Below are positions 6,447 through 25,306 of a stretch of DNA of 64,000 bases, in pieces. Numbering within the stretch: position 1 is the stretch's first letter; each line of letters begins with the position of its first letter. Where the stretch lies: NCBI GenBank assembly GCA_963771355.1, contig CAVYTA010000006.1:2144001-2208000 (forward strand), read 5' to 3'. Below the pieces are notes generated by a model, which worked only from the letters and a program-made list of their open reading frames with translations, was not told where the DNA came from and searched no databases. The DNA is from an uncultured Candidatus Rokubacteria bacterium (lineage in GTDB: Bacteria > Methylomirabilota > Methylomirabilia > Rokubacteriales > CSP1-6). The translations under genes and the position numbers were made by a program.

Positions 6447-6517
6447 CTTGGGCGCGGCCGGATCCGTATCGTCGGACCAGCCGTGACCGCCACCGAGTGA
6501 GCGAGAGGAGAGCCTCC

Positions 6518-7201: not shown

Positions 7202-7203
7202 GC

Positions 7204-8057: not shown

Positions 8058-8843
8058 GTGAGCGTCCTGACCCGAGTTTGGAACGCGATACGCCGTCCCC
8101 GGCGGACGGTCTCGAGCGTGGAGCTGCTCCAGCGCGCGGAGCGCTGCCGGCGCGAGGGCCGCTTCGAGGAGGGGGCCGCGCTGGTTCGCGAGGCGCTCGG
8201 CCGGGAGCCGCGCAGCACCCTGGCCCATCTCCTCGCCGGGTATCTCCATGCCGCTCTCCGCGATCCCCAGGCCGCCGGCGCCGCCTTCCGCGCCGCCCTG
8301 GCGCTGGACCCCGAGCACCCGCGCGCCATGCTGGGGCTGGCCCGGATCGCCCTCGAGGGGGGCGATGCCGGGGCCTGCCGGCAGCTCCTGGAACGCTCGC
8401 TCCGGGTCTACCCGGACTTCCCCGAGGCCCATGCGCTGCTCGACGCGGTGGGCGCGGTGCCCAGTGTCTCGGCGCCGGAGACGCCCACCGCCGCCCCCGC
8501 CATGGCGCGGCTCAGCCTGGTGCCCCGGCCCGAGGGCAGCCGGGAGTGCTTCCTGATGCACCCCGACGGAAGCCTGGTCTTCGCGCATCCCGCCACCGCG
8601 ACGCGTGAGGCCCTCGGCGCCCACCTCGCGCGCGTGGTGAGTCTGGCCGGCGCCACGCTCGCCCGCGCCGGGCTCGGACCGCTGCGGCACGGCGCGGTGG
8701 CCGCCAATCCCGGCACCACCTTTGTCGAGGCCGACGCGCGCCTCATCCTCGCGCTCACCCTCCCCCCGGAGGTGCCGGTGGCCGAGGGCCAGCGGCAGGC
8801 CACCGAGCTGTGGAAGCGCTTTGTTGCGGCGGGGGCCGCTTGA
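8058..8843 (+). CDS. TPR protein with C-terminal degenerate roadblock-like domain
   Basis: TPR helices (ALGREPRSTLAH, ALALDPEHPRAMLGLA, YPDFPEAH); C-terminal CFLMHPDGSLV...AGLGPLRHG resembles roadblock/LC7. Confidence 0.65.
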   Translation: MSVLTRVWNAIRRPRRTVSSVELLQRAERCRREGRFEEGAALVREALGREPRSTLAHLLAGYLHAALRDPQAAGAAFRAALALDPEHPRAMLGLARIALEGGDAGACRQLLERSLRVYPDFPEAHALLDAVGAVPSVSAPETPTAAPAMARLSLVPRPEGSRECFLMHPDGSLVFAHPATATREALGAHLARVVSLAGATLARAGLGPLRHGAVAANPGTTFVEADARLILALTLPPEVPVAEGQRQATELWKRFVAAGAA

Positions 8844-9277
8844 CCTCGGAGGCCCGGGCCCCCGCCGGGGTCCCGCCGGGAGGGGTGCCCTCACGCGCGG
8901 CCGCCGTCCGCAGCATCCTGGGCGAGGTGGCCAAGATTGCCGGGGTCCGGGGCGGACTCCTCATCGCCTCCGACGGCTTCGTGATCGCGTCGACGCTGCC
9001 CGCCGAGGTCGCGGTGGATCCCCTGGCCGCGCTCGCCACCACCCTGGGCCGTGAGCTGGAGCTCGGCACCGGTCGGTTGAATCGGGGCAGCTTCTCGAGC
9101 GCCTTCTTCTCGGCGGACGAGGGCAGCGTCTTTCTCGGGCCGAGCCCGCTCGGATTCGTGCTCGTGCTGATGGAGCGCGGTGGCGAGCTGGGGACGGTAC
9201 GCGGAGAGTTCCGGAAGGCGCTGGATACCCTGCATGCCGCCTGGCGCGCGGGCGATCACACCGGCAGCAAGCTCTAG
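8840..9277 (+). CDS. Roadblock/LC7 (MglB/MglC-like) protein
   Basis: TTG start overlapping upstream TGA; IAGVRGGLLIASDGFVIAS, LAALATTLG. Confidence 0.8.
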   Translation: MTSEARAPAGVPPGGVPSRAAAVRSILGEVAKIAGVRGGLLIASDGFVIASTLPAEVAVDPLAALATTLGRELELGTGRLNRGSFSSAFFSADEGSVFLGPSPLGFVLVLMERGGELGTVRGEFRKALDTLHAAWRAGDHTGSKL

Positions 9278-9283
9278 CGCGAG

Positions 9284-11527
9284 CTAGCTGACGGTCACCC
9301 GGAGGACTTCCTCGACGGTGGTGACCCCCTCGAGGACCTTCTGTAGTGCGTTCTGGCGGAGGGTCTTCATGCCCTGGCTGAGCGCCATCTCCCGGATGTC
9401 GGCGGTGGGCGCATTGTGCAGCATCAAGTCCCGCAGCTCTTCCGTGATCGGCATGACTTCGTAGATGGCCACGCGACCTTTCATGCCCGTGAAGCTGCAG
9501 GCCGGGCACCCCTTGCCCTTGTAGAGCTGGACTTTGCCCAGGCCCTGGAGGACATGGCCGTAGGGGACCAGAGTCTCCTCGTCGGCGTCGTAGGGCTGCT
9601 TGCAGTCCTTGCAGATCTTCCGGCCCAGCCGCTGGGCCAGGATGAGGGTCAGCGCGGAGGAGACCAGGAAGGGCGGGATGCCCATGTCGAGCAGCCGCGC
9701 CACCGTGGACGGGCAGTCGTTGGTATGGAGCGTGGTGAGCACGAGGTGGCCGGTGAGGGCGGCGCGGATGCCGATCTGCGCCGTCTCGAGGTCGCGCGTC
9801 TCGCCGACCAGGATGATGTCGGGGTCCTGGCGGAGGAATGAGCGCAAGGCGGCGGCGAACGTCCGCCCGATCCCCTCGTTGACCTGCACCTGATTGACGC
9901 CCTTGAGGTTGTACTCGACCGGATCCTCGGCGGTCATGATGTTCACGTCGGGGGAGTTGATGGTGTGGATGGCCGAGTAGAGCGTGGTGGTCTTGCCCGA
10001 TCCGGTCGGCCCCGTGATGAGGATCATGCCGTAGGGCTGATGGATGGCCCGCGTGAACTGCTCCAGGCTCCAGGGATCGAAGCCGAGCAACGCGAGGTCG
10101 AGCTGGAGCGCGTCCTTGTCCAGGATGCGCATGACGGTCTTCTCGCCGAAGATGGTCGGCAGGGTCGACACGCGGAAGTCGATCTCGCGCTGGTTGTAGC
10201 GCAGCTTGATGCGGCCGTCCTGAGGCAGCCGCCGCTCGGCGATGTCGAGATTCGACATGATCTTCACGCGGGACGTGAGCGCCGCCTCCAGCCGCTTGGG
10301 CGGGGTCATGATCTCGTGCAGCACGCCGTCGACGCGGAAGCGCACCCGGAAGACCTTCTCGTAGGGCTCGAGGTGGATGTCGGAGGCGCCGCGGCGGATG
10401 GCGTCCACCAGGATCATGTTGATGAGCCGGACCACCGGGGCCTCGTCCGCCGACTCCTTCAGCTCGAAGATGTCGGCCTTGGCCCACTGTTCCTCCTCGC
10501 CTTCGACGACCTCGACGTCGCCCCCGGCCGCGGCCATCTCCGAGAGCACCTCGGCGAGGCCGCCGGTCTGGGCCTCGTACAGCCGCTCGATGGCCTGGCG
10601 AATGGCCCCCTGGGAGGCCACCACCGGCACCACGGTGAGGCCGGTCATGAACGCGACATCGTCAAGCGCGAAGACATTGGTGGGATCGGCCATGGCCAGG
10701 ATGAGCGAGTTCTCCGTCCGCTTGATCGGCAGCACCTCGTACTTGCGCGCGATCTGGGAGGAGATGAGCTCCACGACCTCGGGATCCACATCGAGCTGGG
10801 ACAGCGTGATGGCCTGGAGCCCGTACTGCCTGGAGAGGAAGTCGGTGAGCTGCTCCTCCCGGAGAAGGTCGAGCCGGACGAGGACGGTTCCGATCTTCTC
10901 GTTCGTGCCGCGCTGGCTCGCGAGGGCCTGGGTGAGCTGCTCCTGGGTGATGAGGCCGGCGGCCACGAGCAGATCGCCCAGCTTGCCCATCCGGTGCACC
11001 ACGCGCTCGTCGCCCTTCCCTGCCCCGGGAGCGGGCGCGGGAGCCGGAGGCTCACCGTGCCCCGTGGGCGGGGTGTCGGGCGCCGGCCGGCCGGCCGTGG
11101 TGGGGGGCTCGGGGGCCGGCGGGGGCACCACCGGCGGGGTCGCCACCTCTGCCGCAGACGCGGATACGGGCACGGCGGGCGGGGCCGCGTCGGCGGGAAT
11201 GCGCCGACCGCCGCGGCGCGGCGCGGGGCGCTCGGGCTCGGCGCGCGCGGGCGGGGGGGTGGCCGCGGTCGAGGACGGCGCCTCCGGCGTCCCCTCGGCG
11301 CGCGGCGGCTCGACGGGTCCACCGTGAGCGGCCTCGATGCGTCGGACCACGTCGGCGTGCTTGTCGGCATCGCCGAGCTTGACGTAGATCTCCCGCAGGG
11401 CCTCGAGCGCGCCGACCTCGAGGGGATTGGCCTCGACGATCATCTCGAAGACCTGGGCGGTCTCCGTGAGCTCGCGCCGCTCCTGCGCGGAGAGAGCGCC
11501 CGACCCGGTCTGGTGGAGGACAGCCAT
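9284..11527 (-). CDS. pilB: Type IV pilus extension ATPase PilB with long N-terminal extension
   Basis: ASDIHLEP, DIAERRLPQDG, Walker A GPTGSGKTT, LRQDPDIILVGE, His box TGHLVLTTLHTND, tetracysteine CKDC/CPAC, MshEN-like N domain. Confidence 0.92.
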   Translation of the reverse strand: MAVLHQTGSGALSAQERRELTETAQVFEMIVEANPLEVGALEALREIYVKLGDADKHADVVRRIEAAHGGPVEPPRAEGTPEAPSSTAATPPPARAEPERPAPRRGGRRIPADAAPPAVPVSASAAEVATPPVVPPPAPEPPTTAGRPAPDTPPTGHGEPPAPAPAPGAGKGDERVVHRMGKLGDLLVAAGLITQEQLTQALASQRGTNEKIGTVLVRLDLLREEQLTDFLSRQYGLQAITLSQLDVDPEVVELISSQIARKYEVLPIKRTENSLILAMADPTNVFALDDVAFMTGLTVVPVVASQGAIRQAIERLYEAQTGGLAEVLSEMAAAGGDVEVVEGEEEQWAKADIFELKESADEAPVVRLINMILVDAIRRGASDIHLEPYEKVFRVRFRVDGVLHEIMTPPKRLEAALTSRVKIMSNLDIAERRLPQDGRIKLRYNQREIDFRVSTLPTIFGEKTVMRILDKDALQLDLALLGFDPWSLEQFTRAIHQPYGMILITGPTGSGKTTTLYSAIHTINSPDVNIMTAEDPVEYNLKGVNQVQVNEGIGRTFAAALRSFLRQDPDIILVGETRDLETAQIGIRAALTGHLVLTTLHTNDCPSTVARLLDMGIPPFLVSSALTLILAQRLGRKICKDCKQPYDADEETLVPYGHVLQGLGKVQLYKGKGCPACSFTGMKGRVAIYEVMPITEELRDLMLHNAPTADIREMALSQGMKTLRQNALQKVLEGVTTVEEVLRVTVS

Positions 11528-11545
11528 GGCCCCGCTCGATCGCGC

Positions 11546-12028
11546 CTAGCGCTTCTTGGGTCCGATGTCGGTCCGGGCCTCGTCCGCGGTCAGCGGGGCC
11601 GCCAGCGCCCCCACCCGGCGCGGCTGGGTACGGGCCTCGGCGAGGACGGTCCCGATGGCGCGGCACGCCTCCTTCGCGAAGAGCCGCACCATGCCCACCG
11701 TGGTCCGATCGTCGAAGATCGCGAGCAGGATCGTCTCCTTGTCCACCGTGGAGACGTGGATACTCTCCCGCACGCCCTGGTGGAAGAGCACGGAGAATTC
11801 CGTCTCCCCCAGGAGCTCCGCGATGGCCGCGGTGGAGGAAAAGGCTCCCGCGGCCAGAGCACCGATGGACACCGTGTCGAAGGTCGGGCTCTTGCCGGTG
11901 GAGGCCAGGAGCTGTCCGCTCCGATCGATGAGCAGGGCCTCCGAGGCACTCGATTCCTCGAGGAAGCTCGAGAGCACCTGCCCGATGCGCGTCGCCTCGT
12001 TCTCGTGGATGACCAGGTCATGAAGCAT
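11546..12028 (-). CDS. mglB: MglB-type GTPase-activating roadblock protein
   Basis: LLIDRSGQLL, GALAAGAFSSTAAIAELLGETEF, IFDDRTTVGMVRL resemble Myxococcus MglB; overlaps the mglA end. Confidence 0.85.
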   Translation of the reverse strand: MLHDLVIHENEATRIGQVLSSFLEESSASEALLIDRSGQLLASTGKSPTFDTVSIGALAAGAFSSTAAIAELLGETEFSVLFHQGVRESIHVSTVDKETILLAIFDDRTTVGMVRLFAKEACRAIGTVLAEARTQPRRVGALAAPLTADEARTDIGPKKR

Positions 12029-12635
12029 TGCGCTGGACCTCCTGTTCCTGTCCGAACTCACTGAGGAGCACCATGCGGGATACCGTGTTGAGCGCGTCGA
12101 ACACGCCGGTCCCCTGGCTGGCCACCGTCTCGAAGGACGGCACGCGCCGGGCGCGGCGATTGAGGAGATACTCCATGTACGCGACGGGCGCGGCGTTGGG
12201 GAGGTCGCGCTTGTTGTACTGGATGACGCACGGGGTGCGGTCCAGCTCGTAGCTGTACTCGCGGAGGTTCTCCTCGAGGTTGCGAAAGCTCTCCACGTTC
12301 TCCTTCATGCGCTCGAACTGCGAGTCGGCCACGAACACGACGCCGTCGATGCCCCGCAGCACCAGCTTCCGCGTCATGTTGTAGTAGACCTGCCCCGGCA
12401 CGGTGTAGAGCTGGAACTTGGTCACGAACCCGCGCACGCTGAGCGAGGATACCGGCAGGAAGTCGAAGAAGATGGTCCGGTCGTCGCCGGTGGCGAGCGA
12501 GATCATCTTCCCCTTGTTGCCGTCGGGCAGCGAGCGGTGCACGTGCTGCAGGCTGGCCGTCTTGCCCGCCACCCCGGGGCCGTAGTAGACGACCTTGAAG
12601 TTGATCTCTTTCGCCGCGTAGTTGATGATCGACAT
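12018..12635 (-). CDS. mglA: MglA-family small GTPase
   Basis: MSIINYAAKEINFKVVYYGPGVAGKT, DRTIFFDFLP, YTVPGQ, NKRD. Confidence 0.93.
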   Translation of the reverse strand: MSIINYAAKEINFKVVYYGPGVAGKTASLQHVHRSLPDGNKGKMISLATGDDRTIFFDFLPVSSLSVRGFVTKFQLYTVPGQVYYNMTRKLVLRGIDGVVFVADSQFERMKENVESFRNLEENLREYSYELDRTPCVIQYNKRDLPNAAPVAYMEYLLNRRARRVPSFETVASQGTGVFDALNTVSRMVLLSEFGQEQEVQRNAS

Positions 12636-12646
12636 GGCTCCCGTTC

Positions 12647-14935
12647 TCAGACGGCGCGGAGCAGCCCCGCGGCCCGCTCGAGTTGCCGGTGCGCGAGGCC
12701 GGGCCGGTCCACCGACTGCCCGGCGGCCACGAGCACGCTGAATCGCCCGGGAACGCCCTTCACTGGCCGTACCACCAGCCGGCGCTCGTTCAGGCGGAAC
12801 ACCACGGACTGCAGCGCCCCCAGCGCGGGCTCGTCGCCCTCGAGGGTGAGCGCGCGGCAGACATCCACCGCGAAGCCGGCCACCGCCCGGCTGTCCTCGC
12901 CCGGCGCGAGGAACACGCACACCTCGGCACTCCCGGTGGAATCACGGAGCACGGTCGGGGCCACCCGCCCGAAGGCGTTCAGGTCTCCGGCCAGGAAGCC
13001 GAGGGACAGGGCCCCCGAGTCCCGTGTCTCGTAGTGCGAGCCGTTCCCCATCCGGTCGGACGCCTCCCGGCGCGCGGGGGACGCGGGATAGGCGAGGCGA
13101 TGCTCACGAGCGGCCTTGAGGCACACCAGCTCCAGCATGGCCAGCGAGCCCACACGGGCCACCGAGGCCACCATGACCGGTCCGCCCGAATCGACGGTGC
13201 CCAGCGGGGTGAGGATGATGGCCCCCTCCTCGCGACGGACCGTCAGCTGGTCCACCGGCCACGGAGCCTGCCCGCTCATGAGGAACGGCAGCGTGGAGGC
13301 CGCCGTCCGCAGCACGGAGGTGGTGGGCAAGGCGGAGGAGTTGAAGGTGAAGAGCGTCACGCCCTCGATGCTGGTGGAGCCCACCTCGAGCGCGCCGAAG
13401 GGCGTGAGCACGGCGGCGAGGCGACGCGACTGCCGTAGCCGATCCTCGGTGAGGGGGAGGGTGGGACGCGGTGTCTCGACGGGCGGCGGCGGCACGCGGG
13501 GCGCGGCGGCCAGGACGGGCTCGAGGCGAGACGGCGCCGCCACCGCCGGTTCCTCGAGCACGGGCGGCTCGATCGGAGCGGGCACCGCCGTCAGCTCCAC
13601 CTCCACGAAGAGAGGCTCCAGGGGAGGCGGTGGCACGTGGGGCACCTCGACGGGCGCCGGCTCGACGCGCGCGGACTCGAGGGCGTCGAGCTGCTCTTCG
13701 AACGCCAGCTGGGGAGCGAGGCCGTACTCGATCTCGCTCTCCACGAAGAGGAAGGGGGGGACGAAGTCGGTGGCGTCGGCCCGCGGCGGCTCGGCCTCGA
13801 GCTCGGCGTGGGGCGCCGCGGGCTCGGCAATCTCGACCGGAAGGATCGGCGATTCGGACTCGACCACGGGGTCCGGCATGACCGCGGCTTCCGTGCTGAG
13901 AGGCGCGGAGGCGGCGGCCGGAGCGGGCGGGGCCGGGGGAAGCTCCACCGGGAGCGGCTCCAGCGCCTCCACGGTCTCGGCTTCGAAGGGCTGGAAGGGC
14001 AGCGGGAAGCGCTCGATGCCCTGCACGTCCACCGCCGGCGTCGAGGCCGCGAACATCTCGGGGGGCAGCCGCCGCACGATCTCGTCGAGCGGGAGGACGA
14101 TGCGGCCCTCGGGAAGCCGGTCGCGCACGGTGGCCTCGTTCACCGCCAGGGCATGACGTGGAAACTGGTCCGCCACCTCGTCCCAGCTCACCGAGACGGC
14201 GCCATCCGCGAGCTGGGGCACCACCAGGCGGGTGGGCACCAGCAGATGTCCAGGCTCGAGCAGGTTCGCACCGAGCCGGTCAGGCGGAATGGTGAAGGTG
14301 CCGGCGGGGAGCTGGTCGGCGATGCGGGAGAACGGGATGGAGAGGACCTCCTCCACCCGCTCGGCGCCGCGCGGCGCGCCGCCGGAGATGGGCGACGGGG
14401 AGGACGACTCGGCCGACGCCACCGCAGGAACGCTCGGTTCCGGCGGCGGGGGCGGGACCATCTCCGGCATCTCCACGGGGAAACGGTCGAGGCGGGGATT
14501 GGCGTCGGCCGCCGCCGCCAGGGAAACGGATAGGGAGCCCCGCCGCCGAGCGCGCGGCGGCGCGTACATGGCGCGGAACGGGAGCACGAGCAGGGACACG
14601 CAGAAGAGCTGGAGGAGCGGCGCGGGCAGGTATTCCCAGGCCGCCACCGCGAAGGCGGCGGGAAAGGGCAGCGCCATCACCGCCGCGTACACCATGCCGG
14701 TGGCGGAGGCCAGCGCGGCATGGGCCACGAAGAGCAGCGCCACGATCCCGATGGCCTGGAGCGTGCTTGCCCGGGGGCAGCAGATCACGACCAGCAGCGT
14801 GTATACCACCGCCGGCGCCACGAGGGCCCCCCACCACGGCAGCGAGACGTCGGCGGTGGGCAGGAACGCGGACACCACCACCACCGCCACCGTGTACAGC
14901 ACCAGGTCCGCCACCGTCAGGATGAAGTTCTTCAT
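12647..14935 (-). CDS. Uncharacterised membrane protein: N-terminal TM helices, short internal repeats, Pro/Glu-rich linker, two putative degenerate roadblock domains
   Basis: 762-aa ORF in operon context; hydrophobic first ~120 aa; domain calls made by eye. Confidence 0.7.
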   Translation of the reverse strand: MKNFILTVADLVLYTVAVVVVSAFLPTADVSLPWWGALVAPAVVYTLLVVICCPRASTLQAIGIVALLFVAHAALASATGMVYAAVMALPFPAAFAVAAWEYLPAPLLQLFCVSLLVLPFRAMYAPPRARRRGSLSVSLAAAADANPRLDRFPVEMPEMVPPPPPEPSVPAVASAESSSPSPISGGAPRGAERVEEVLSIPFSRIADQLPAGTFTIPPDRLGANLLEPGHLLVPTRLVVPQLADGAVSVSWDEVADQFPRHALAVNEATVRDRLPEGRIVLPLDEIVRRLPPEMFAASTPAVDVQGIERFPLPFQPFEAETVEALEPLPVELPPAPPAPAAASAPLSTEAAVMPDPVVESESPILPVEIAEPAAPHAELEAEPPRADATDFVPPFLFVESEIEYGLAPQLAFEEQLDALESARVEPAPVEVPHVPPPPLEPLFVEVELTAVPAPIEPPVLEEPAVAAPSRLEPVLAAAPRVPPPPVETPRPTLPLTEDRLRQSRRLAAVLTPFGALEVGSTSIEGVTLFTFNSSALPTTSVLRTAASTLPFLMSGQAPWPVDQLTVRREEGAIILTPLGTVDSGGPVMVASVARVGSLAMLELVCLKAAREHRLAYPASPARREASDRMGNGSHYETRDSGALSLGFLAGDLNAFGRVAPTVLRDSTGSAEVCVFLAPGEDSRAVAGFAVDVCRALTLEGDEPALGALQSVVFRLNERRLVVRPVKGVPGRFSVLVAAGQSVDRPGLAHRQLERAAGLLRAV

Positions 14936-14950
14936 TTTGTGTGCGCCCCC

Positions 14951-15907
14951 TCAGATCACGCGGGCCAGGTCGGGAAGCAGCTTCTTGACGTAGTAGCGGA
15001 CCTTCCCCAGCGCCGCCGCGTCCTTGCACATCACGGCGAGCACCGCTGCCGGTCCCACGCGGTGCAGCAACACCGTGCCCTTCTCGTACTCGATGAGCAT
15101 GCCGCCGAGCGCGCCGCGGCCCAGCTCCCGGCCGATCCCATCCGAAGACTCCGCGAGACAGGCGGCCATGGCGGCGGCGACCTCCGCCTCCACGCCGATG
15201 TCCCCCGCGGACTCGATGAGGAAGCCTTCACGATCGCTGAGCGACGCCCAGTCGGCGCCCGAGACGGCCATGAACTGGGCCAGCATCGAGCCCAGGTCGA
15301 GGCCGGCCCACGATGCTGGCGTGGGAACCACAGCGGGCCGGCCGCCGGACCAGGCGGCCACCGCGGCCGCGACCTGCGGCTCAGGAGCACGCCGGATGGC
15401 GGGGATGGGCGGTGTCCAGGCCGGCGCGGCGGGGGGGGCGGAGGGAAGGACCGCCGCGGGCGTGACCCGGGCGGGCGCCACCGGCGCGCCGTTGGTGCGC
15501 GGCTCCTCGGCCCACGCCGCGGGGGCCCGTCGTGGCGCCGCGCCCGGGTTGAGCAGCTCCGACACCTTGCGCACCAGCTCCGCCGCCTCGAAGGGCTTGC
15601 GCAGCACGTCGTCCGATCGCGCCTCGGCCGCCTGCTCGAGGACGCTGGCATTGACGATCCCGGAGATCAGGAGCACGGGGGTCCGTCCGAGCCGCGGGTG
15701 GCTCTTCACGAAGCGGCAGATCTCGTAGCCGTCACGGTCCGGCATGACGACGTCGCACACCACCAGATCGGGCTGCTCGCGCTCGATCTGCGCGATGGCC
15801 TCGGTGCCCGAGGCCGCCGACACCACGTCGAGCTGCTTGGCGACCAGCGCGCGCTCCACCACCTTGCGCACGCTCAGGCTATCGTCGACGACTAGTACCT
15901 TTGCCAT
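14951..15907 (-). CDS. Response regulator: receiver domain, Pro/Ala linker, roadblock domain
   Basis: VLVVDDS, VVCDVVMP, RKPF; C-terminal ASLSDREGFLIES...GMLIEYEKGTVLL. Confidence 0.85.
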   Translation of the reverse strand: MAKVLVVDDSLSVRKVVERALVAKQLDVVSAASGTEAIAQIEREQPDLVVCDVVMPDRDGYEICRFVKSHPRLGRTPVLLISGIVNASVLEQAAEARSDDVLRKPFEAAELVRKVSELLNPGAAPRRAPAAWAEEPRTNGAPVAPARVTPAAVLPSAPPAAPAWTPPIPAIRRAPEPQVAAAVAAWSGGRPAVVPTPASWAGLDLGSMLAQFMAVSGADWASLSDREGFLIESAGDIGVEAEVAAAMAACLAESSDGIGRELGRGALGGMLIEYEKGTVLLHRVGPAAVLAVMCKDAAALGKVRYYVKKLLPDLARVI

Positions 15908-15910
15908 GAC

Positions 15911-16717: not shown

Positions 16718-17186
16718 GTCTCCTCTCCAGGTGGGACGCGAGGAGCGCGTCCACGTCGAACAGCGGGACGTCCTGGTTCTCGAGGCGCGCGAGACCGCGC
16801 AGCCAGCGCCGCTCCGGGGCGCTGTATGCCTCGGGCAGCGCGCTGATCGCGCTCGACGGAAGGGCGGTCAAGGTCACGACCACGTCGGTGAGGAGCGCCC
16901 CCGAGAGACTGACGCCCGCCACCAGCAGGAGTACGCGGCCGCGCGGGCCGCCCACGGGGCCGTCCCATGCCGGAAAGCCCAGGAGCGCGCGCAGGTCGAG
17001 CACGGGATACGGCACGCCCAGGAAGACAACCGGCGCGCCCGCGCCCCCCTCGTCGCGCAGCAGGTGCTTCACGCGCGCCGCCTCCACCGCGTACCGGCGG
17101 CCGTGCACGCTGAAGAGCACGCCCCGGCCGTGGAGCGTGGGCGCCGTGCGGCGCCGGGGGGCGAGATGGCTCGGGCTAAGAGGCAT
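16710..17186 (-). CDS. CheW-like adaptor (divergent)
   Basis: YAVEAARV, YPVLDLRALLG, LFDVDALL; lies directly downstream of cheB. Confidence 0.7.
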   Translation of the reverse strand: MPLSPSHLAPRRRTAPTLHGRGVLFSVHGRRYAVEAARVKHLLRDEGGAGAPVVFLGVPYPVLDLRALLGFPAWDGPVGGPRGRVLLLVAGVSLSGALLTDVVVTLTALPSSAISALPEAYSAPERRWLRGLARLENQDVPLFDVDALLASHLERRHV

Positions 17187-18288
17187 GGCCCACCTTCAGC
17201 TGGTGGCTCAGGAGGTCACCCACGCAGGCCAGCACGGTCTCGGGCAGGCCCGAGAGCGGCACCATGGCGTCCACGCAGCCCATGTCCGCCGCCGCCCGTG
17301 GCATCCCGTACACCACGGAGGAGGCCTCGTCCTGTGCGATCACGATGCCGCCGCTCTTGCGGATGGCGGCGGCTCCCAGCGCGGCGTCGCGGCCCATGCC
17401 GGTGAGCACCACCCCGATGGCGAGCGGTCCCGCGTGCTCCGCCACCGAGGTCATGGCGAGGTCGGCCGAGGGCGAGTCCTCCGAGGGGAGCTGGGCGGGC
17501 CGAAGCATCACCTCACCGCGCGGCCCCACCGTGAGATGCTGCGAGCCCGGGCACACGCTCACCACGCCGCGGGCGAGATGATCGCCGGCGGCCGCCTCCC
17601 GCACCGTGATGCTGGAGCGCTCGCCGAGCAGGCGCGCGAGGGCCTGGGTGTACGGCGCCGGCATGTGCTGCACCACCAGCACCGCCGCGGGCAACTCCCG
17701 CGGCATCTCGGGGATGAGCCCGAGGAGGGCGGCGGGCCCGCCGGTAGACGCGGCGATCACCACGCAGGGGGTCCAGCCGTCGGAGCCGGCCGACATCGCG
17801 AAGGCGGCGAGTCCCGGATGCGAAGCGCCCGCCGGCCTCTCGCCCGGGCGCACGGCGGTGATCCGGGCCGGGCGCACGCGGGCCGCGGCCAGGATCTTCC
17901 GGACGATCTCGCTGGCGAGCGCGGCCAGCCCCGGGTCCACGCCCCAGGATGGCTTGGCCACCACGTCCACCGCGCCCGCCTCCATCGCGCGAATGGCCGC
18001 CTCGCCGCCCTCGGGCGTGGTCGCGCTCATGACCACCACGGGAATCGGATGCACGGCCATCACCCGGCCAATGGTGTCGATGGCGTCGCTGGCGTCCATG
18101 CCGACGTCGATCACGATCACGTCCGGCAGGCGCCGCGTCAGTGCGCGCAGCACCTGGTCGGCGTCCGCGGCCATCCCCACCACCTCGAGCCGAGAATCCG
18201 CCGTCAGCGTGCGGCGCAGCGCGCCCCGCATGGCGCGGGAATCGCCCGCCACCAGCACCCGCACCGGCGCCGCCGCGGGCGCGGTCAC
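17176..18288 (-). CDS. cheB: Chemotaxis methylesterase CheB (receiver plus esterase)
   Basis: Catalytic triad motifs AASTGGP, VQHMP, LTGMGRD; QDEASSVVYGMP. Confidence 0.9.
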   Translation of the reverse strand: MTAPAAAPVRVLVAGDSRAMRGALRRTLTADSRLEVVGMAADADQVLRALTRRLPDVIVIDVGMDASDAIDTIGRVMAVHPIPVVVMSATTPEGGEAAIRAMEAGAVDVVAKPSWGVDPGLAALASEIVRKILAAARVRPARITAVRPGERPAGASHPGLAAFAMSAGSDGWTPCVVIAASTGGPAALLGLIPEMPRELPAAVLVVQHMPAPYTQALARLLGERSSITVREAAAGDHLARGVVSVCPGSQHLTVGPRGEVMLRPAQLPSEDSPSADLAMTSVAEHAGPLAIGVVLTGMGRDAALGAAAIRKSGGIVIAQDEASSVVYGMPRAAADMGCVDAMVPLSGLPETVLACVGDLLSHQLKVGHAS

Positions 18289-21062
18289 CGCGCGCCTCCC
18301 CCCGGAGTACGCGCGGAGGCCAGCCCCGCGACGAGCGCCACGAACGCGCGCTCGTCCACCGGTTTCGTGACGTAGTGCTCCACCCCCAGCCGGCGCGCGA
18401 GCTCCAGATGCTTCTCCCCCGCCCGCGTGGTGAGAATGACCACCGGGATCGCCCGCGTCTCGGGGCGGCGGCGGAGATCCTGGACGAGCTCGAAACCGTT
18501 GACCCGCGGCATCTCGAGATCGGTGACCACGACGTCCACCATGGTGTCGGCGAGGAGGTTCAGCGCCTCGCCGCCGTCCGCCGCCATCCGCACCTCGAAG
18601 CCCGCGCGCTCGAGCATGAGCCCCACGAACTTCCGCACGCTCAGCGAGTCGTCCACCAGGAGCACGCGCGGCGCCTCGCGCGGCGGGGCGCCCGGCCGGA
18701 TCGGCACCGGACGCGGCGCGCCGACCCTCGGCGCATCCCCGCGCCGCGTCTCGGCGAGCCGCGTGGGGTCGAGCAGCAGGATGACCCGGCCCTCGCCGGA
18801 GACCGTCGCGCCCGACCAGGGACCGGCGCCGTCGAGGAAGGCGCCCAGGCCCTTGATGACGATCTCGGACTTGCCGAGCAGCTCGTCCACCACCGCCGCC
18901 ACCAGCCGGCGGCCCGCCCGGAGCGCCACCACCGAGAGCCGCCGGCCCGGCGGGTCACCCGCCACCTCGAGGACCCGGTCGAGCCGGAGCAGGGGGAGAT
19001 CCTGTCCCTCGATCGCCACCGTCTCGCCGTCCGGACCCGTCCGGATCTCGTCCGGACGCGCGGAGTACAGCCCGCGGATCGCGGTCACCGGGATGGCGAG
19101 CTCCACCGCTCCCACGCGCACCCCCAGCGCCTCGCCGATCAACACGGTGAGGGGCAGCTTGAGCGTGAAGCGCGTGCCGACCCCCACCTCGGTCTCGATG
19201 TCGATCTCGCCGCCGAGCCGGCGGACATTGGTCCGCACCACGTCCATGCCCACGCCGCGGCCCGCCGCGGACGTGGCCACCTCCGCGGTGCTGAAGCCCG
19301 GCAGGAACACGAGGTCGAGCGCCTCGCGCTCGCTCAGGTAGGCGGCCGCCACCGCGTCCAGAAAGCCGCCGCGGACGGCGCTGGCCCGGAGCCGATCCGT
19401 GTCGAGGCCCCGCCCATCGTCCTCCACCTCCACGTACACCACGCCGCCCACGTGATAGGCGCGGAGGGACACGGTGCCATGCTCGGCCTTGCCTCGCCCG
19501 CTACGCTCGGCCGCGGGCTCCAGCCCGTGGAACACCGCGTTCTGCACGAGGTGCAGCAGCGGGTCGGCGATCTGCTCGATGATGGTGTTGTCGAGCTCGA
19601 CGCCCTCGCCCGCCACCTCGAGGTCCACCATCTTGCCGGAGGCCCGCGCGAGCTCCCGAACCTGGCGGGCGTGTCGGGCGAATAGCCGGCCGATGGGGAC
19701 CATGCGCGAGCGCGTGATGTCGCTTCGGAGTCGCCCGGTGAGGCGCTGCACCTGGGCGGTGTCCTCACGGATGGTGCGAACCAGGCCGGCGAGCTGGGTC
19801 TGCACCTCGGCCACGTCGGCGGACACCTCCGCCACGCGACGGGAGAGGATGTTGAAATCGTCGTAGCGGTCGAACTCCAGCTCCTCGAAGTTGTGGAGGA
19901 AGGCGCCCGGGTGCGGCTCCGCGGGCGGCGCCCCCGCCCCGCCGCTCGACCCGTGGGCGGCCGGCACGGCGGCCAGCTGCGTGTAGCCGTGCTTGCCCTC
20001 GAAGGTCTGCACGGCCTGCGCCATGCGCGAGCGGCTCCAGAGGAGGAGCTCGCCCACCCGGTCGAGCTGGGTGAGGTGGTCGTCCATGCGTGAGCGCGCG
20101 ATGACCAGCTCACCCACCAGATTCATCAGCGAGTCGAGCCGCTCCACGCTCACGCGGATGCTGGCGCGCGCGGACGGCGCCGCGCTCCACGCCGCCACCG
20201 CGGGCTCCATGGCCTCCGCGGTCGACGCGGTGTCGGCGGGGTCCGCCCCGGCCAGGGCCGGCTCCGCCGTAGTCGCCGCGGGAGCGCCCAGCGCGGCCTC
20301 GACGAGGGCGCGGGCGCGCGTCACCGAGGACTCGAGCCCGGCCGGACGCTCGGTGGCGGCGGCGAGCATGAGGCGCACGGCGTCGGCGCTGGCGAACACG
20401 GCCTCCACCGTGGCGGGCGTGAAGCGCCGCCGGCCCTCGCGCACCGCCACGAGGAGATCCTCCACGCGGTGGGCGAAGTCCCCGATGGTGGGACAGCCTA
20501 CCGTGTAGGCGGCGCCCTTGAGGGTGTGGAAGGCGCGGAACAGCGTCGCCACCTCGGCGTCGGGGTGGGCGCCGCGCTCGAGCGCCAGCAGCGCGTGGGT
20601 GATGGTCTCGAGATGCTCGATCGCCTCCGGGCCGAAATACTCGAGGACATCCCCGTTCTCGGCATAGAACCGGGCCAGCTCGTCGAGCACCCGCCCGCCC
20701 GCGCCCGGAGGGGGCGCGGCTTCCGGCTCGGCGGGCGGCACCGTCTCCGGCCCCACCCGCTCCAGCAACTCGCGCAGCCGCACCACCGCGTGGTCGAGCC
20801 CGTCGGCGAACGGGCTGCGCTCCTCCGGGGCCAGGCTCTGCACGTGCTCCAGCATCGCCTCCAGCTCGGCCGCTTCCGCGGCCAGCTCCGGGAAGCCGTG
20901 CAGCGCGGCGGCGCCGCGGAGCCGGTGGGTCACCACCAGCAGGGGCTCGACGTCACCGCCTTCACGCAGACTGCCGGCGCCTTCCTCGAGGGTGGACACG
21001 GTGTCCCACGCCTCCATGAGGAAGATGCTCAGCAAGAACTCGCGATCCGGGTGCTCCGTCAT
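18285..21062 (-). CDS. cheA: Hybrid CheA/ChpA-like kinase (2 Hpt, dimerisation, HATPase, CheW, receiver)
   Basis: HRLRGAA and HTLKGAA Hpt motifs; LMNLVGELVI, EDDGRG, GFSTA, GRGVGMDVV; C-terminal VTDLEMP receiver. Confidence 0.92.
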   Translation of the reverse strand: MTEHPDREFLLSIFLMEAWDTVSTLEEGAGSLREGGDVEPLLVVTHRLRGAAALHGFPELAAEAAELEAMLEHVQSLAPEERSPFADGLDHAVVRLRELLERVGPETVPPAEPEAAPPPGAGGRVLDELARFYAENGDVLEYFGPEAIEHLETITHALLALERGAHPDAEVATLFRAFHTLKGAAYTVGCPTIGDFAHRVEDLLVAVREGRRRFTPATVEAVFASADAVRLMLAAATERPAGLESSVTRARALVEAALGAPAATTAEPALAGADPADTASTAEAMEPAVAAWSAAPSARASIRVSVERLDSLMNLVGELVIARSRMDDHLTQLDRVGELLLWSRSRMAQAVQTFEGKHGYTQLAAVPAAHGSSGGAGAPPAEPHPGAFLHNFEELEFDRYDDFNILSRRVAEVSADVAEVQTQLAGLVRTIREDTAQVQRLTGRLRSDITRSRMVPIGRLFARHARQVRELARASGKMVDLEVAGEGVELDNTIIEQIADPLLHLVQNAVFHGLEPAAERSGRGKAEHGTVSLRAYHVGGVVYVEVEDDGRGLDTDRLRASAVRGGFLDAVAAAYLSEREALDLVFLPGFSTAEVATSAAGRGVGMDVVRTNVRRLGGEIDIETEVGVGTRFTLKLPLTVLIGEALGVRVGAVELAIPVTAIRGLYSARPDEIRTGPDGETVAIEGQDLPLLRLDRVLEVAGDPPGRRLSVVALRAGRRLVAAVVDELLGKSEIVIKGLGAFLDGAGPWSGATVSGEGRVILLLDPTRLAETRRGDAPRVGAPRPVPIRPGAPPREAPRVLLVDDSLSVRKFVGLMLERAGFEVRMAADGGEALNLLADTMVDVVVTDLEMPRVNGFELVQDLRRRPETRAIPVVILTTRAGEKHLELARRLGVEHYVTKPVDERAFVALVAGLASARTPGGGAR

Positions 21063-21084
21063 CGTCGCCCTGGGATTCGCCCGC

Positions 21085-22983
21085 TCAGGCCGCCAGCTTG
21101 AATCGGGACAGGGTCTGGGTGAGCTCCTCGGCCAGCCGCACCAGGTCCTCCACCGTCTTCCGGGTCTGGAGGACCCCCTGCTCGGTCTGGAGCGCCACCC
21201 CCGCGATGGCCTGCACGGCGACGCCGACGTGCTCGGCGCCCTTGACCTGCTCCTGCGCGGTCACCGAGATGTCCTGGGCCAGCCCGGCCGAGCGCTTCGA
21301 CACGTTGGCGATCTCGCGCAAGCTCTCGCCGGCCTGGGTGGTGACTCGATACCCGGTCTCGACCTCCCGGGTCCCCTCCTCCATGGCGATCACCGCCTGC
21401 TGGGTCTCGGACTGGAAGTTCTTGATGAGAACGGCGATGTCGCGGGTGGCCTTGGCCGACCGCTCCGCCAGCTTCCGCACCTCGTCGGCGACGACGGCGA
21501 ACCGGAGACCGGCCTCACCCGCGCCGGCCGCCTCGATGGCGGCGTTGAGCGCGAGCAAGTTGGTCTGCGCCGCGATGTCGTCGATGGTGTTGACGATCTC
21601 GGAGATCTCGAGCGAGCGGTCGCCGAGATTCTTGATCTTCTTGGAGATGCCCTGCACCTCGTTCCGGATCCGCTGCATGCTGTCGAGGCTTCGCTGCACC
21701 GCCTGCTCACCCTGCTGGGCGGCGTCGAGGCCCTGCCGGGCGGCGCGGGCGGAGTCCTCCGCGGTACCGGCCACGCGCCGGACCGAGGTGCCGAGCTGGT
21801 CCACGTTACCGGTGGCCTGCATGGCGTCGCGCGCCTGCGCCCGCGCGCCCGTCTCGATTTGCCCCATGGACACGATCATCTCGCTGGCGCTCGCCGACAC
21901 GTGATGCGCGGCCTGGCGCACGTCCAGCAGGAGGTGGCCGATCTCGCCCACCATGACGTTGATGGCGTCCACCACGCTGCCGAGCACATCGGAGGTCACG
22001 TCGCCCCGCTTGGTGAGGTCCCCATGGGAGACCTCCATGGCCACGTCGAGGAAGCGCGTGATGTTGGCCTGCAGGTCCTGGCGCTGCCGACGCTCGGCGT
22101 CGCGCTCGGCCACCGTCTGCACCAGCGAGCGGAGGCGGACGATGGAGTCGTTGAAGGTGGAGGCGAGCTGACCGAGCTCGTCGCGCGACTGGACCGGGGC
22201 GAGCTTGGAAAGGTCGCCCTTACCAACCTGCTCCGCCACCCGCACCAGCTGCCGGATGGGCCGCGTGATGCGCCGGGCGAAGACCACCGCCGCCAGCACC
22301 GCCGCCACCGCGAAGCCGCCGAAGGTCAGGAGGAGGGTGGAGCCGGCCTGCGCGGCGGCGGCGGTGATGATGGTCTTGTCCATGCCCACGCGCACGGTGC
22401 CGAGCTGGCCCGCGAGCACCGGTACCGCGATGTCGATGACCTCCCGCTCCCCGCGTCCGGCGGGATCCTGGTAGCGAACCTCCTGCACCTTCTGCGCCCA
22501 ATCACCCGGCACGAGGTTCTGATCCACCAGCCCGGGCGGCACCAGGGGCGCGAAGGTGTGGGCGATGAGGGTCCGCTGCTGGTCGTACACCATGACGTAG
22601 GCCACGCCGCTGATGCCGGCCACCTGGTCCACCTGCGCCTGCACGGTGGAGGCGTCGCGGGTGAGGACGAGGTCCACCGCGGTGTTGGCGAGGCCTCTGG
22701 CGATCGCCGAGCCCTTGGACGTGAATTCCTCGGTGAGGTTGGTCCGGAGCGACTGCACCGAGATCGTCCAGGTGAGCGCCGCGAGGGGAACCAGGATGAG
22801 AAGCAGGAACGCCATGATCTTGGCGAGGAGGCCGAATCGGCCCGACCATCGGAACCCGCCCTCGGAACGACTCGTCCGCGGGGGCGACGGCTCCACCGGC
22901 GGATCACTTGTGACTGGGACGGCGGCCGCCGCCGCGCGCCCCTGCTCCCTCTTGATCCGCTCCCACTCCGTCATCGCTGCCAT
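21085..22983 (-). CDS. Methyl-accepting chemotaxis protein (PilJ-like)
   Basis: Two TM helices, HAMP ([11 protein letters not shown]), [17 protein letters not shown]...[13 protein letters not shown]. Confidence 0.92.
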
Positions 22984-22998
22984 TGCCGGTCCTCCTCG

Positions 22999-24324
22999 CT
23001 ATGCCTTGGCGGCGGCGTTCCAGTCCTGGACCGGAACCCAGCGGCCGTTCTCGACGCGGGTGAAGTAGACGCTGTCCAGCCCCTGATGACGCTCGGGCCC
23101 GAAGTTGAGCGGGGCGGCGATGCCCAGGTCCACGTTCCGCATCCCCTCGAGCGCCTGCCGGAGGGCGACGCGCGTGGGAGCCGGGCCCGCACGGCGCAGC
23201 GCTTCCACGATCACCTTGGCGTTCACGTAGCCCTCGAGGCTGATGAAGCTGAACTTCTGCGGGGCGTACTTGGGATCGCGGAGGCTCTCCGGCACGGTGG
23301 GCTTGTGACGCTCCATGAGGGCGCGGTACTCCACCACCGCGGGCAGCGTGAGGTCGTCGTAGCTCGGCACCACCTGCGAGTTGACGAGGCCGGTGGTGTA
23401 CTCGCGGCCGGATGTCTTGCCGTGCTGGACGAGCAGGGCGAGCATGGCGTCCGAGCCGACGAAGGAGACGTTGGCGATCGGCACACTCCAGCCGAGATCG
23501 CGCGCGGTGCGCACGAAGGCCCCGCAGCCCTGGTAGGCTCCGGTGCAGAGGACCACGTCCACCCCCGCGCGGCGCAGCTCGCCCACCGCGGGGCTCATGT
23601 CCTCCTCGAACTTCGCGCCGCGCGTGTAGGTCGCCTCCGCCACGATCCGCGCGTTGCGCAGGGCGAGCCCCCGGGCCACGCCGTCGGTGCCGCTGCGGCC
23701 GTACGCGTCCACCTGGTAGTAGACGCCGAACTTGCGGGCCCCCTGCTCCCAGAAGCGGTCGACGAGCGCCATCATCTCCTGGCGATAGGAGGCGCGGATG
23801 TTGAAGACGTGCTCGCCGTACGGCGCCTCGCGCTGCGGCTGCGCCCCGGTGAAGTTCCCCACCAGGATCACCTGCTGGGCGGCATAGCGCTTGATGAGGG
23901 GCAGCGCGCGGGTGAGGGTGGGCGTGCCCACGTAGTTCGACAGGAAGAAGACGTTCTCCTTCTCGATGAGCTGGAGCGTGTTGCGGATGCACGGGATGGG
24001 CTCGTAGCCGTCGTCGATGGCCATCACGCCGATCGAGCGGCCGTGCACTCCGCCCCGGGAGTTGATCTCGTCGTAGTAGGCCTGCGCCCCCCGGTAGAAC
24101 TCGGTACCCAGACCCGCGGCGGTGCCCTTGAAGGCGGCGCTCATCCCGATGCGGATGTCCTTGGCAGAAACGCCGGGAACACTGGCGGCGGGGATCTCGG
24201 GCGCCCCCGGGCGCGCCGGCGGGGCCGGCTTGATCGCCTGCGCCCAGCCGGACGTGGCTCCACTGCTCACCATCCCGCCGGTGAGCCCTGCCGAGAGAAG
24301 TCGAAGCACCGTGCGCCGCTTCAT
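22999..24324 (-). CDS. Periplasmic binding protein (LivJ-like), probable Tat signal
   Basis: MKRRTVLRLL; IRIGMSAAFKG, INSRGGVHGR, DDGYEP, VGTPT. Confidence 0.85.
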   Translation of the reverse strand: MKRRTVLRLLSAGLTGGMVSSGATSGWAQAIKPAPPARPGAPEIPAASVPGVSAKDIRIGMSAAFKGTAAGLGTEFYRGAQAYYDEINSRGGVHGRSIGVMAIDDGYEPIPCIRNTLQLIEKENVFFLSNYVGTPTLTRALPLIKRYAAQQVILVGNFTGAQPQREAPYGEHVFNIRASYRQEMMALVDRFWEQGARKFGVYYQVDAYGRSGTDGVARGLALRNARIVAEATYTRGAKFEEDMSPAVGELRRAGVDVVLCTGAYQGCGAFVRTARDLGWSVPIANVSFVGSDAMLALLVQHGKTSGREYTTGLVNSQVVPSYDDLTLPAVVEYRALMERHKPTVPESLRDPKYAPQKFSFISLEGYVNAKVIVEALRRAGPAPTRVALRQALEGMRNVDLGIAAPLNFGPERHQGLDSVYFTRVENGRWVPVQDWNAAAKA

Positions 24325-24342
24325 CCGTCGCCTCCTTGGCTC

Positions 24343-24828
24343 CTAGTGGTTCCCGGCCGTCCGGGGCGCGCCGGTGAGCGCGGCCCGAAGGGCCTCGAGC
24401 ACCGCGCCCGCGTCGAGCACCGTCACTTCACCCGCCGTCCCCGCCGCCACTCCGGCCGCGAGTCGACCCCAGCGCCGCCGGGCCGGCTCTCCCAGCGGAG
24501 ACGGCGTCCCGAGGGGCTCGAGGCCGAGCACGGCGTCGATCGCCGCCGCCGCCGCCCACGGACCGTGGGCGAGGACGATGCCGAGCGTCTGCCGCGCCGG
24601 CTCGCGGGCCGGCAGGCCCAGCAGCGGCCCCAGGTCCACGATCGGCATCACCGCCCCGCGGAGATTGGCCAGTCCCATCAGAAAGGGCGGGGCCAGCGGC
24701 ACCGGGGTGAGGCCGTCGAAGACGACCACCTCCCGAGCCTGGCCCACCTCCACCGCGAAGCGCGATCCCGCGAGCATGAACACGCACGCCCGGGCGCCGG
24801 TGGGCCGTTCGACGACGGCCTCGCTCAT
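24343..24828 (-). CDS. cheW: CheW (PilI-like) adaptor
   Basis: LTPVPLAPPFLMGLANLRGAVMPIVDL. Confidence 0.88.
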   Translation of the reverse strand: MSEAVVERPTGARACVFMLAGSRFAVEVGQAREVVVFDGLTPVPLAPPFLMGLANLRGAVMPIVDLGPLLGLPAREPARQTLGIVLAHGPWAAAAAIDAVLGLEPLGTPSPLGEPARRRWGRLAAGVAAGTAGEVTVLDAGAVLEALRAALTGAPRTAGNH

Positions 24829-24835
24829 CGCGCCG

Positions 24836-25198
24836 CTACCGCGCGAAGCGGCGCACGGCCTCGAGAAGCTGCTCCGCCGTGAAGGGCTTGCCGAGATACT
24901 CGTCCGCCCCCTGCCGCTTGCCCCACACCCGGTCGCTTTCCTGGTTCTTCGAGCTGACCACCACCACCGGGGTGTCCTTGGTCCGCCCGTCGCGCTTGAT
25001 GCTGCGGAGGATCTCGTAGCCGTTGCGCTTGGGCATGACGATGTCGAGCAGCAGCACGTCGGGCTGCTCCTCGGCGACTTTGTCCTCCAGACGATCGCCG
25101 TCGATCAACGTGACCACCTTGTGGCCGGCGCTCCGGAGAATGCCTTCCATCATCGTCAGCTCGGAATACGCGTCATCGACGACCATCACCTTGCCCAT
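24836..25198 (-). CDS. Single-domain response regulator (PilH/CheY-like)
   Basis: ATG at 25198 after GAGGA; VVDD, LLDIVMP, SSKNQESDRVWGKRQGA, KPF. Confidence 0.9.
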   Translation of the reverse strand: MGKVMVVDDAYSELTMMEGILRSAGHKVVTLIDGDRLEDKVAEEQPDVLLLDIVMPKRNGYEILRSIKRDGRTKDTPVVVVSSKNQESDRVWGKRQGADEYLGKPFTAEQLLEAVRRFAR

Positions 25199-25290
25199 CG
25201 CGGTTCGATTCCTCCCTCTCTTTCGGGTGCGCGCGGCCTGCTGGCGGAGCCCGGACGGGGCTGGACAGAGACCCAACCGCCCGGAAAGTC

Positions 25291-25306
25291 TGCAAGGCCG
25301 GGGCCA
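25291..25306 (-). promoter_or_regulatory. Candidate sigma-54 promoter of the chemosensory-mgl-pilB operon
   Basis: Minus strand reads TGGCCCCGGCCTTGCA (GG-N10-GC with TTGCA), ~90 nt upstream of the first gene. Confidence 0.55.

Follow-up and report, generated by a model that had tools for sequence, protein, structure and literature searches.

We analysed a window of 64,000 nucleotides (nt) of contig CAVYTA010000006.1 (positions 2,144,001 to 2,208,000, forward strand) from an uncultured Rokubacterium (Methylomirabilota; assembly GCA_963771355.1, 99.8% complete) and examined a gene block at window positions 8058..25306, in which a chemosensory system, the small GTPase MglA with its partner MglB and the pilus ATPase PilB stand together. 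Predicted from its genes, the block is made of two layers, a chemosensory core and a detachable MglA arm. The core is similar to the type IV pili (Tfp) chemosensory class and comprises a PilH-like protein, CheW, a binding protein, a methyl-accepting chemotaxis protein (MCP), CheA, a pseudo-receiver and a phosphorylatable receiver-roadblock fusion. The added arm consists of MglA/MglB, a PATAN domain, a four-repeat domain, a TPR/roadblock gene pair and a hairpin-fused PilB. Control of the pilus is a probable function of the block, which likely sets the cell pole that extends type IVa pili. The operon joins known modules by new adaptors, and it is conserved and apparently undescribed.

We detected 13 open reading frames (ORFs) on the minus strand and two on the plus strand, with all the expected genes present. 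Pfam and NCBIfam searches assigned to genes 1-5 a receiver, CheW, Peripla_BP_6, sCache_3_2-HAMP-MCP and Hpt (twice)-dimerisation-HATPase-CheW-receiver; to genes 6-10 receiver-CheB, CheW, receiver-DUF4388, receiver-Robl_LC7 and a membrane protein without a match; to genes 11-13 Arf/Ras, Robl_LC7 and MshEN-T2SSE; and to the plus-strand pair TPR and Robl_LC7. These ORF calls and searches confirmed the order of the 13 genes and of the convergent pair given in a first-pass annotation of this DNA, including the 6 nt between the stops of the plus-strand pair (9277) and of pilB (9284). PilH-like, PilB2, hairpin and scaffold are working labels. Neighbouring minus-strand genes overlap by up to 11 nt or are separated by up to 22 nt (the mglA and mglB junctions computed by hand from the ATG starts 12635 and 12028), and this spacing suggests that the genes are co-transcribed. 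The GC content at third codon positions was 0.88-0.94 in 14 genes, each read from a plausible start, and the value for mglA was taken from an over-long upstream start. A promoter and terminator scan returned 1 and 3 sites, against chance expectations of 0.6 and 3.5. RNA contigs (4 runs of one rhizosphere study) were rejected as evidence of co-transcription: they covered 30 of 30 bins, some of them near-identical, but also the flanks, and they carry neither strand nor transcript information.

The locus holds the only CheA, MCP, MglA and MglB detected in the host genome. Its pseudo-receiver-PATAN gene is also the only PATAN gene of the genome, and all three Pfam roadblock matches of the genome fall in this locus. 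FliG was not found in the host genome, and the main type IVa pil cluster (pilB, pilT, pilC, a sensor kinase, a sigma-54 regulator, pilM and a secretin; contig C6, 2099524-2116529) lies 36-52 kb off. These findings speak for the pilus-polarity reading, as does the binding of PATAN domains to PilB reported for Synechocystis (bioRxiv 2021.06.11.447907). The expected link to pili is further borne out by repeat and hairpin genes that head pilB-pilC operons elsewhere. The host had been expected to be non-myxobacterial, and it is: among the 27 mglA loci closest to it, 22 have Methylomirabilota or Rokubacteria in their titles. The other five (L001, L004, L016, L022 and L024) are titled archaea, Verrucomicrobiia, Polyangia or Deferrimicrobiaceae and are likely mislabelled records rather than cases of transfer, since their MglA identity is 76-97% and their gene order identical.

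We then surveyed 251 genomes of the phylum, with the MglA and CheA lists drawn by identity. This MglA clade was present in 78 genomes and an orthologous CheA in 102, with both in 73. In 58 of those 73 genomes cheA and mglA stand on one contig, and all 58 have them linked, in the same order and within 10 kb (the remaining 15 carry them on different contigs); the linkage is thus not due to chance, and the gene order is conserved as had been anticipated. The TPR/roadblock pair was found beside the operon in three positions (downstream convergent, downstream co-directional and upstream divergent). No chemosensory operon was found near distant mglA loci within the DNA examined, nor any chemosensory genes in 15 stretches around the non-clade mglA genes of the phylum.

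The core genes, like all minus-strand genes of the block, read from high to low coordinates. Residue counts were taken from ORF matches of 48 loci, some of which overlap or repeat a genome. The PilH/CheY-like single receiver (120 aa; 24836..25198) has D8, D9, D52, S82 and K104 intact, and its phospho-site was kept in 15 of 15 matches. It is followed by CheW1 (24343..24828; PF01584, E 7.5e-21), a periplasmic binding protein of the Peripla_BP_6 family that is a likely ligand input (22999..24324), and an MCP (21085..22983) with two transmembrane (TM) segments, sCache_3_2, HAMP and a signalling hairpin. The MCP has about 20.1 and 20.3 heptads around the hairpin by a rough count, which fits the 40-heptad MCP that is a criterion of the Tfp class. 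The hybrid CheA (18285..21062) carries two Hpt domains (H46, H179), dimerisation, HATPase and CheW domains and a C-terminal receiver (D848); both Hpt histidines were present in 28 of 28 matches and the receiver Asp in 33 of 33. Several Hpt domains, a C-terminal receiver and no P2 (as judged by Pfam alone) make up the Tfp-class CheA trait, which is common to the alternative cellular functions (ACF) class as well: multi-Hpt CheAs with a receiver are reported for both classes (PMC10782961). The nearest full-length CheA matches in a plasmid collection, at 30-38% identity, came from Deinococcus, a cyanobacterium and Acinetobacter, and in these plasmid records they rank ahead of shorter matches to other CheAs. 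CheB methylesterase (17176..18288; S181/H208/D301 kept) and CheW2 (16710..17186), which mostly co-occurs with CheB, are indeed in the operon, as first annotated, but they are accessory and present in 2 of 19 loci. No CheR was found in the locus and the only CheR of the genome lies on another contig, in a distant 1400-aa frame, so adaptation is doubtful. That region (contig C8, 129637-130995) has CheB and CheR domains in or beside the one frame, probably a CheB-CheR-kinase hybrid unrelated to the operon.

Two further proteins of the core carry a receiver fused to another domain. In the pseudo-receiver-PATAN/DUF4388 fusion (15911..16717) the phospho-Asp and Lys are missing here and were present in 0 of 34 matches. 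In the receiver-roadblock fusion (14951..15907), whose domains are joined by a Pro/Ala linker, D52, S82 and K104 were kept in 34 of 34. By this survey, and with the CheA and CheB receivers set aside, the block holds two live phospho-acceptors: the PilH-like protein and the fusion, of which the latter has a roadblock. The PATAN receiver is dead.

MglA (12018..12635) is an intact Group 1 protein by the residue survey: K25, T26, R53, T54, Q82 and NKRD were present in 47 of 47 matches. Group 1 is defined by an arginine finger beside the G2 threonine and a TVPGQ G3 motif (PMC4316618), and here we found R53, T54, Q82 and a coupled mglB. The alignment with Myxococcus xanthus MglA spans 191 residues (E 9e-70), with R53 and Q82 kept. 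MglB (11546..12028) matched the M. xanthus and Thermus MglB proteins (E 4e-25 and 1e-17, respectively) and scored 78 bits, below the 200-bit cut-off of a Thermus-specific NCBIfam model. By homology it is a predicted GTPase-activating protein (GAP) of MglA, the role that MglB has in Myxococcus, where it works with partners. The order mglA then mglB was as annotated: mglB stands directly downstream of mglA in 26 of the 27 close loci (the remaining one is truncated) and upstream of it in 50 of 53 distant loci.

The genome search gave three Pfam roadblocks: those of the receiver-roadblock fusion, of MglB and of the lone roadblock protein (8810..9277, plus strand; real start probably 8840-8885), which scored 22.9 bits in the window scan, against a cut-off of 23, and 23.8 in the genome search. 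The roadblock profile of the fusion matched archaeal roadblocks and MglB at E 2e-10 to 4e-8, and 19 of 19 MglB rows matched it at 10 bits or more. The idea of an MglC fusion was not supported (MglC E 0.97, against 4e-8 for MglB). Two more roadblock-like domains were predicted at the C-terminus of the 762-aa membrane protein (12647..14935), which lacks a Pfam match and consists of N-terminal hydrophobic segments, a four-repeat domain, a Pro-rich linker and the two roadblock-like domains; its structure model has three confident parts. For the second roadblock-like domain (12650..13021) the VIA search gave Z 8.9 (rmsd 2.9, 113 residues aligned), with roadblock chains in the top eight rows, and MP1-p14 was among the top fold matches of the region (Z 8.7). 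The first domain (13079..13456) gave weak VIA matches, below the clear level of the tool (Z 6.0-6.3: a Rag-like GTPase chain, MglC and a Streptomyces roadblock), in which MglC (Z 6.1) was level with other roadblocks. The two halves are alike (hhalign E 3e-4), and Foldseek found no match at E 0.001 for the whole 573-residue model. Finally, the TPR protein (8058..8843, plus strand), which the lone roadblock gene nearly always adjoins, has a C-terminal alpha/beta domain whose beta-beta-alpha-beta-beta-alpha order is compatible with a roadblock in a low-confidence model (pLDDT 32-67). Of 19 members, two had a Robl_LC7 match (best E 0.0035), no profile match exceeded shuffles, and fold searches with the protein returned TPR chains only. 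Profile comparisons among the operon roadblocks were mostly weak. The first-pass count of up to six roadblock domains thus stands for five (three by Pfam and two by predicted fold), and the sixth is possibly a degenerate roadblock, judging from that model.

The four-repeat domain (residues about 194-318; 13982..14356) has a four-fold internal repeat, pLDDT above 90 over most of its length and no Pfam or other family match; relatives carry 1-3 or more copies of the domain. Its profile found 294 representatives, including proteins of 1000-1600 aa with at least three repeat domains, and several of these long proteins also matched the tandem-roadblock profile. In a second lineage, 3 of 3 long metagenome loci have a repeat/roadblock gene, a coiled-coil or TPR gene, a hairpin-MshEN gene and then pilB, with pilC next in both loci read that far; within 10 kb neither mglA nor any chemosensory gene was seen. 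Tested in two of these loci, the hairpin matched that of the operon PilB (E 7e-9 and 9e-5). These loci (L121, L122 and L124, about 10000-21000) are, by their gene content, a chemosensory-free version of the adaptor module; at 56-59% GC, they also show an ExeA-like ATPase, T2SSB and a PAS kinase preceding the membrane repeat/roadblock gene. Another, short locus (L126:712-1996) has, immediately upstream of mglA, the gene of a roadblock-free TM protein of 318 aa that carries a short form of the repeat domain. The second-lineage pilB loci and this mglA locus place the new domains at the pilus motor and near MglA independently of chemosensory genes. ESM Atlas matches to the repeat domain (0.86) and the PilB hairpin (0.93) point to Verrucomicrobiota and are leads rather than loci. 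The new adaptor proteins proposed in the first-pass annotation are supported.

The operon PilB (PilB2; 9284..11527) passed the type IVa PilB model TIGR02538 (749 bits, cut-off 676) and has intact Walker A and B motifs, with K512, E534 and E576 in 17 of 17 matches. Its core is 91% identical to the main-cluster PilB, and it is longer by about 180 N-terminal residues, which form a TPR-like helical hairpin (11303..11527), found separately on a hairpin-MshEN protein elsewhere, and a Pro-rich linker. Both PilB copies scored above the cut-off of an MshE-type c-di-GMP-binding motif model (64 and 69 against 38 bits), and the motor may thus respond to c-di-GMP as well; in PilB2 the motif lies at residues 182-234 (window 10826-10984, minus strand). 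In a tree of 11 operon rows and 11 others, labelled by position beforehand and with partial and distant rows omitted, a single clade of hairpin-bearing operon PilBs was rejected (approximately unbiased test, p 2e-46). Several operon PilBs grouped with the non-operon copy from the same genome or genus and four formed a group of their own, a mixing that likely reflects repeated gene conversion or re-duplication. In four genomes the operon pilB was the only copy found at the threshold used.

Outside the phylum, the core was found in Deinococcus. D. aetherius (NZ_AP026561.1) has the same order of receiver, CheW, binding protein, MCP, CheA, pseudo-receiver-PATAN and receiver-roadblock, with identities of 49, 32, 58, 45 and 38% for the first five and a roadblock match at iE 1e-8. 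When four of its proteins or domains were searched against the host genome, the window counterpart was the best match each time. The same core occurs in D. radiodurans (NZ_OV024759.1), but there it includes three MCPs, lacks the binding protein and matches the roadblock weakly (iE 0.004). On neither of these two replicons was mglA found, and the sole plasmid mglA match, in D. ficus, had no chemosensory neighbours. D. radiodurans R1 has a Group 1 mglBA at DR_0853 (PMC4316618), and D. radiodurans shows surface motility (PMC12393216).

We lean, by a little, towards a wiring that leads from CheA through the receiver-roadblock fusion and the scaffold to MglA/MglB and PilB2. The binding protein would hand a ligand signal to the sCache MCP, and CheA would phosphorylate the PilH-like protein as well as the receiver-roadblock fusion, but not the PATAN protein, which cannot take a phosphate. 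The roadblock of the fusion would dock on the tandem roadblocks of the membrane protein, a docking predicted from the constant adjacency of the two genes in the Rokubacteria loci examined, whether MglA is present or not. Within the family of the host, the scaffold would gather the repeat domain, PATAN, the TPR/roadblock pair, MglA/MglB and the hairpin-PilB, and phosphorylation would shift the site where MglB switches MglA off and the site of PilB loading. MglA would serve as a polarity amplifier on a pathway able to run without it. A bolder version, which we offer tentatively, makes the fusion a directly phosphorylated GTPase regulator: CheA phosphorylation would gate its assembly with the tandem-roadblock scaffold, MglB and the TPR/roadblock pair into a Ragulator-like platform that places MglA-GTP and loads the hairpin-PilB through the repeat domain. 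This would be a one-step link from a chemoreceptor array to a Ras-like switch across Rokubacteria and partly in Deinococcus and other phyla.

Several results weigh against the wiring towards which we lean. In the sister family f4, MglA was found in 0 of 21 genomes, and by profile in 0 of 10 (one of them 98% complete, in about 10 contigs), although the loci of this family keep the receiver-roadblock fusion (nine intact, one frameshifted) and the tandem-roadblock protein (10 of 10); these two proteins therefore do not need MglA. The same 10 loci have the PATAN domain cut off and the repeat domain absent, the lone roadblock was found in 0 of the 10 genomes and PilT in all 10; the joint loss of MglA, PATAN, repeat domain and lone roadblock is itself an argument for the wiring. 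Four loci of family f1 keep PATAN and the repeat domain with mglA missing from both the locus and the assembly (84-95% complete), so the link between repeat domain and MglA is not strict. Of the 102 genomes with this CheA, 29 lack an MglA of the clade (some are incomplete), and ten of these 29 belong to f4. The Deinococcus receiver-roadblock gene is not followed by a membrane scaffold, so the proposed docking partner is not universal. The host genome has several other PilB/GspE-like ATPases and secretins, PilT is present in 27 of 28 genomes, including operon-less ones, and so does not single out this system, and pilB is missing from 5 of 25 informative loci (present in 20). The expected pilus motor is in the block as a type IVa pilB, but as a hairpin-fused second copy, with the main pil cluster about 52 kb off and a minority of loci without it. 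Since the core is present without MglA in f4, and in Deinococcus with mglA off the replicon, sensing and GTPase are separable. The first-pass view of sensing, Ras-like switch and pilus motor as one unit holds for the linkage but not for this separability. With the core persisting without it, MglA is an add-on and not the obligate target of the pathway, which weakens an earlier relay reading.

The block could instead hold two parallel pilus regulators on a shared transcript, with the core acting on the motor directly in the style of Pil-Chp or Tax (through PATAN on PilB, and with PilH as an antagonist), MglA/MglB setting polarity independently and no signal passing from CheA to MglA. The retention of the core in f4, the separation of core and mglBA in Deinococcus and the mglB-mglA pairs of other Methylomirabilota families, which had no chemosensory genes in the 15 stretches, all agree with this, and in Synechocystis PATAN binds the N-terminal domain of PilB and this suffices for steering (bioRxiv 2021.06.11.447907). 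We nevertheless consider it rather unlikely, given a phosphorylatable receiver fused to a roadblock with an MglB-matching profile (E 4e-8), an mglAB pair inserted inside the operon in reversed order that stays there in 58 of 58 genomes, and a PATAN domain cut off in f4 exactly where MglA is missing. Less probable still is an output other than directional movement, ACF-like, through another polar or pilus function (adhesion, DNA uptake, secretion or cell-cell contact). The CheA architecture shared by the Tfp and ACF classes, the doubtful adaptation, the several other secretin/ATPase systems of the genome and the fact that the system is known from genes alone would suit such an output, but the operon ATPase passes the type IVa cut-off and tracks the pilB beside pilT, and the gene order matches the pilH-pilI-pilJ-chpA-chpB-chpC order of Pil-Chp; in addition, D. 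radiodurans moves on surfaces. Adjacency by accident or by a recent local rearrangement is scarcely credible: parts are lost in some relatives, but the linkage in 58 of 58 genomes extends across many genera, start and stop codons overlap, and the TPR/roadblock pair moves yet stays adjacent.

If the favoured wiring is right, the block bears on a question for which Myxococcus is the one studied case, and there the link from chemosensory kinase to Ras-like switch is still indirect; here the operon that encodes MglA/MglB also encodes a live receiver joined to a GTPase-regulator fold, a candidate for that link. The natural variants with and without MglA illustrate how a polarity GTPase is gained or lost by a probable pilus-steering pathway. 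Further products of the locus are a repeat domain without classification, a family of membrane proteins with tandem roadblocks and a tagged PilB whose sequence continues to match that of the main motor copy. Genetics should be possible in Deinococcus, since it is cultured and has the core, and D. radiodurans has a separate Group 1 mglBA and surface movement.

Some neighbouring and related loci were also recorded. Just upstream of the operon, on the same strand (window 25553-27049, minus), a 498-aa membrane protein has a weak mannosyltransferase (PIG-M) match (E 0.013). On the other side (window 4744-7970, plus strand) lies a row of aminotransferase-like, cupin-like, TenA/haem-oxygenase-like, Rieske-like and HbpS-like genes, of which Pfam confirms the TenA-like and HbpS-like ones and the others were judged by eye. 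Elsewhere in the host genome at least four further PilB/GspE-like ATPases (C5:308123, C7:307482, C6:618536 and C6:1884714) and six secretin matches indicate many pilus or type II secretion systems. In a genome of the same genus (L147; G006:C16:44001-64000) the operon jumps from mid-cheA to mid-pilB with eight genes removed, by deletion or assembly error. In L137 (13100-14000) mglA is missing and a diverged MglB-like roadblock (50%) and a lone roadblock directly follow the membrane protein. Finally, the genome of L142 (G054:C25) belongs to a different order and has a classical mglA; elsewhere in it stands the core operon, through transfer or a binning error.

We found no description of the operon, the receiver-roadblock fusion or the Deinococcus cluster in the open full-text literature, including the accessible parts of PMC11580455, PMC10519157, PMC9481161, PMC3441718 and PMC13408092 for the operon; Makarova 2006 (on PATAN) or the 2010 chemosensory classification may already list PATAN or roadblock genes within chemosensory clusters. 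Nor did the full-text literature, subscription papers being outside its scope, give a functional study of the Deinococcus operon. For Rokubacteria, twitching and MCP genes are noted, with no GTPase in the text available (PMC5712423). The operon is apparently undescribed, but mglA beside PATAN, and a Group 5 order PATAN>MglA>MglB, are already in print (PMC4316618). According to the same source, the mglA genes of Myxococcus and Bdellovibrio lie away from those of their partners, and mglA occasionally has PATAN genes nearby; chemosensory array genes are not reported there ('CheA' and 'CheW' had 0 matches in the supplement searched). Two ideas, a PATAN domain in SopA and RomY as a roadblock, were contradicted by the literature and dropped.

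Among known systems, Ragulator, a roadblock platform tethered to a membrane that serves Rag GTPases, offers a works-like analogy only: in both, a membrane anchor and more than one roadblock occur along with a small GTPase, and there is no homology beyond the fold. The Deinococcus chemosensory operon has the same core order and next to it no membrane scaffold, mglAB or pilB. In PATAN-associated MglA neighbourhoods and actinobacterial conservons, mglA lies beside PATAN, or beside a kinase and a roadblock, and the conservons use a Group 2 MglA without the arginine finger (PMC4316618), whereas the Rokubacterium MglA is of Group 1. With the Tfp class (Pseudomonas Pil-Chp and cyanobacterial Tax, the latter with PatA, CheY, CheW, MCP and CheA) the block shares a multi-Hpt CheA with a C-terminal receiver, a PilH-like protein, CheB and a second CheW as extras and a PATAN protein. 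It differs in that its PATAN protein has a dead receiver ahead of PATAN, while PatA-type proteins have an N-terminal PATAN and then a receiver (here the order is reversed and the receiver lacks Asp and Lys), and in that its second live receiver bears a roadblock; P. aeruginosa is reported to have no MglA module (PMC12632253). With the Frz system and the polarity module MglA/MglB/MglC/RomR/RomX/RomY of M. xanthus, a piliated cell, the block shares a pathway built on a hybrid CheA, together with MglB and an MglA of Group 1. The Frz traits of a cytoplasmic receptor, a double-receiver FrzZ and a CheR (FrzF) in the cluster are absent here: FrzCD is reported as not membrane-bound, whereas the Rokubacterium MCP is a membrane protein (two TM segments) with a binding protein. 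The Myxococcus genes are in separate loci (PMC4316618), whereas those of Rokubacterium form one operon and, unlike Frz and the polarity module, include a receiver fused to a roadblock.

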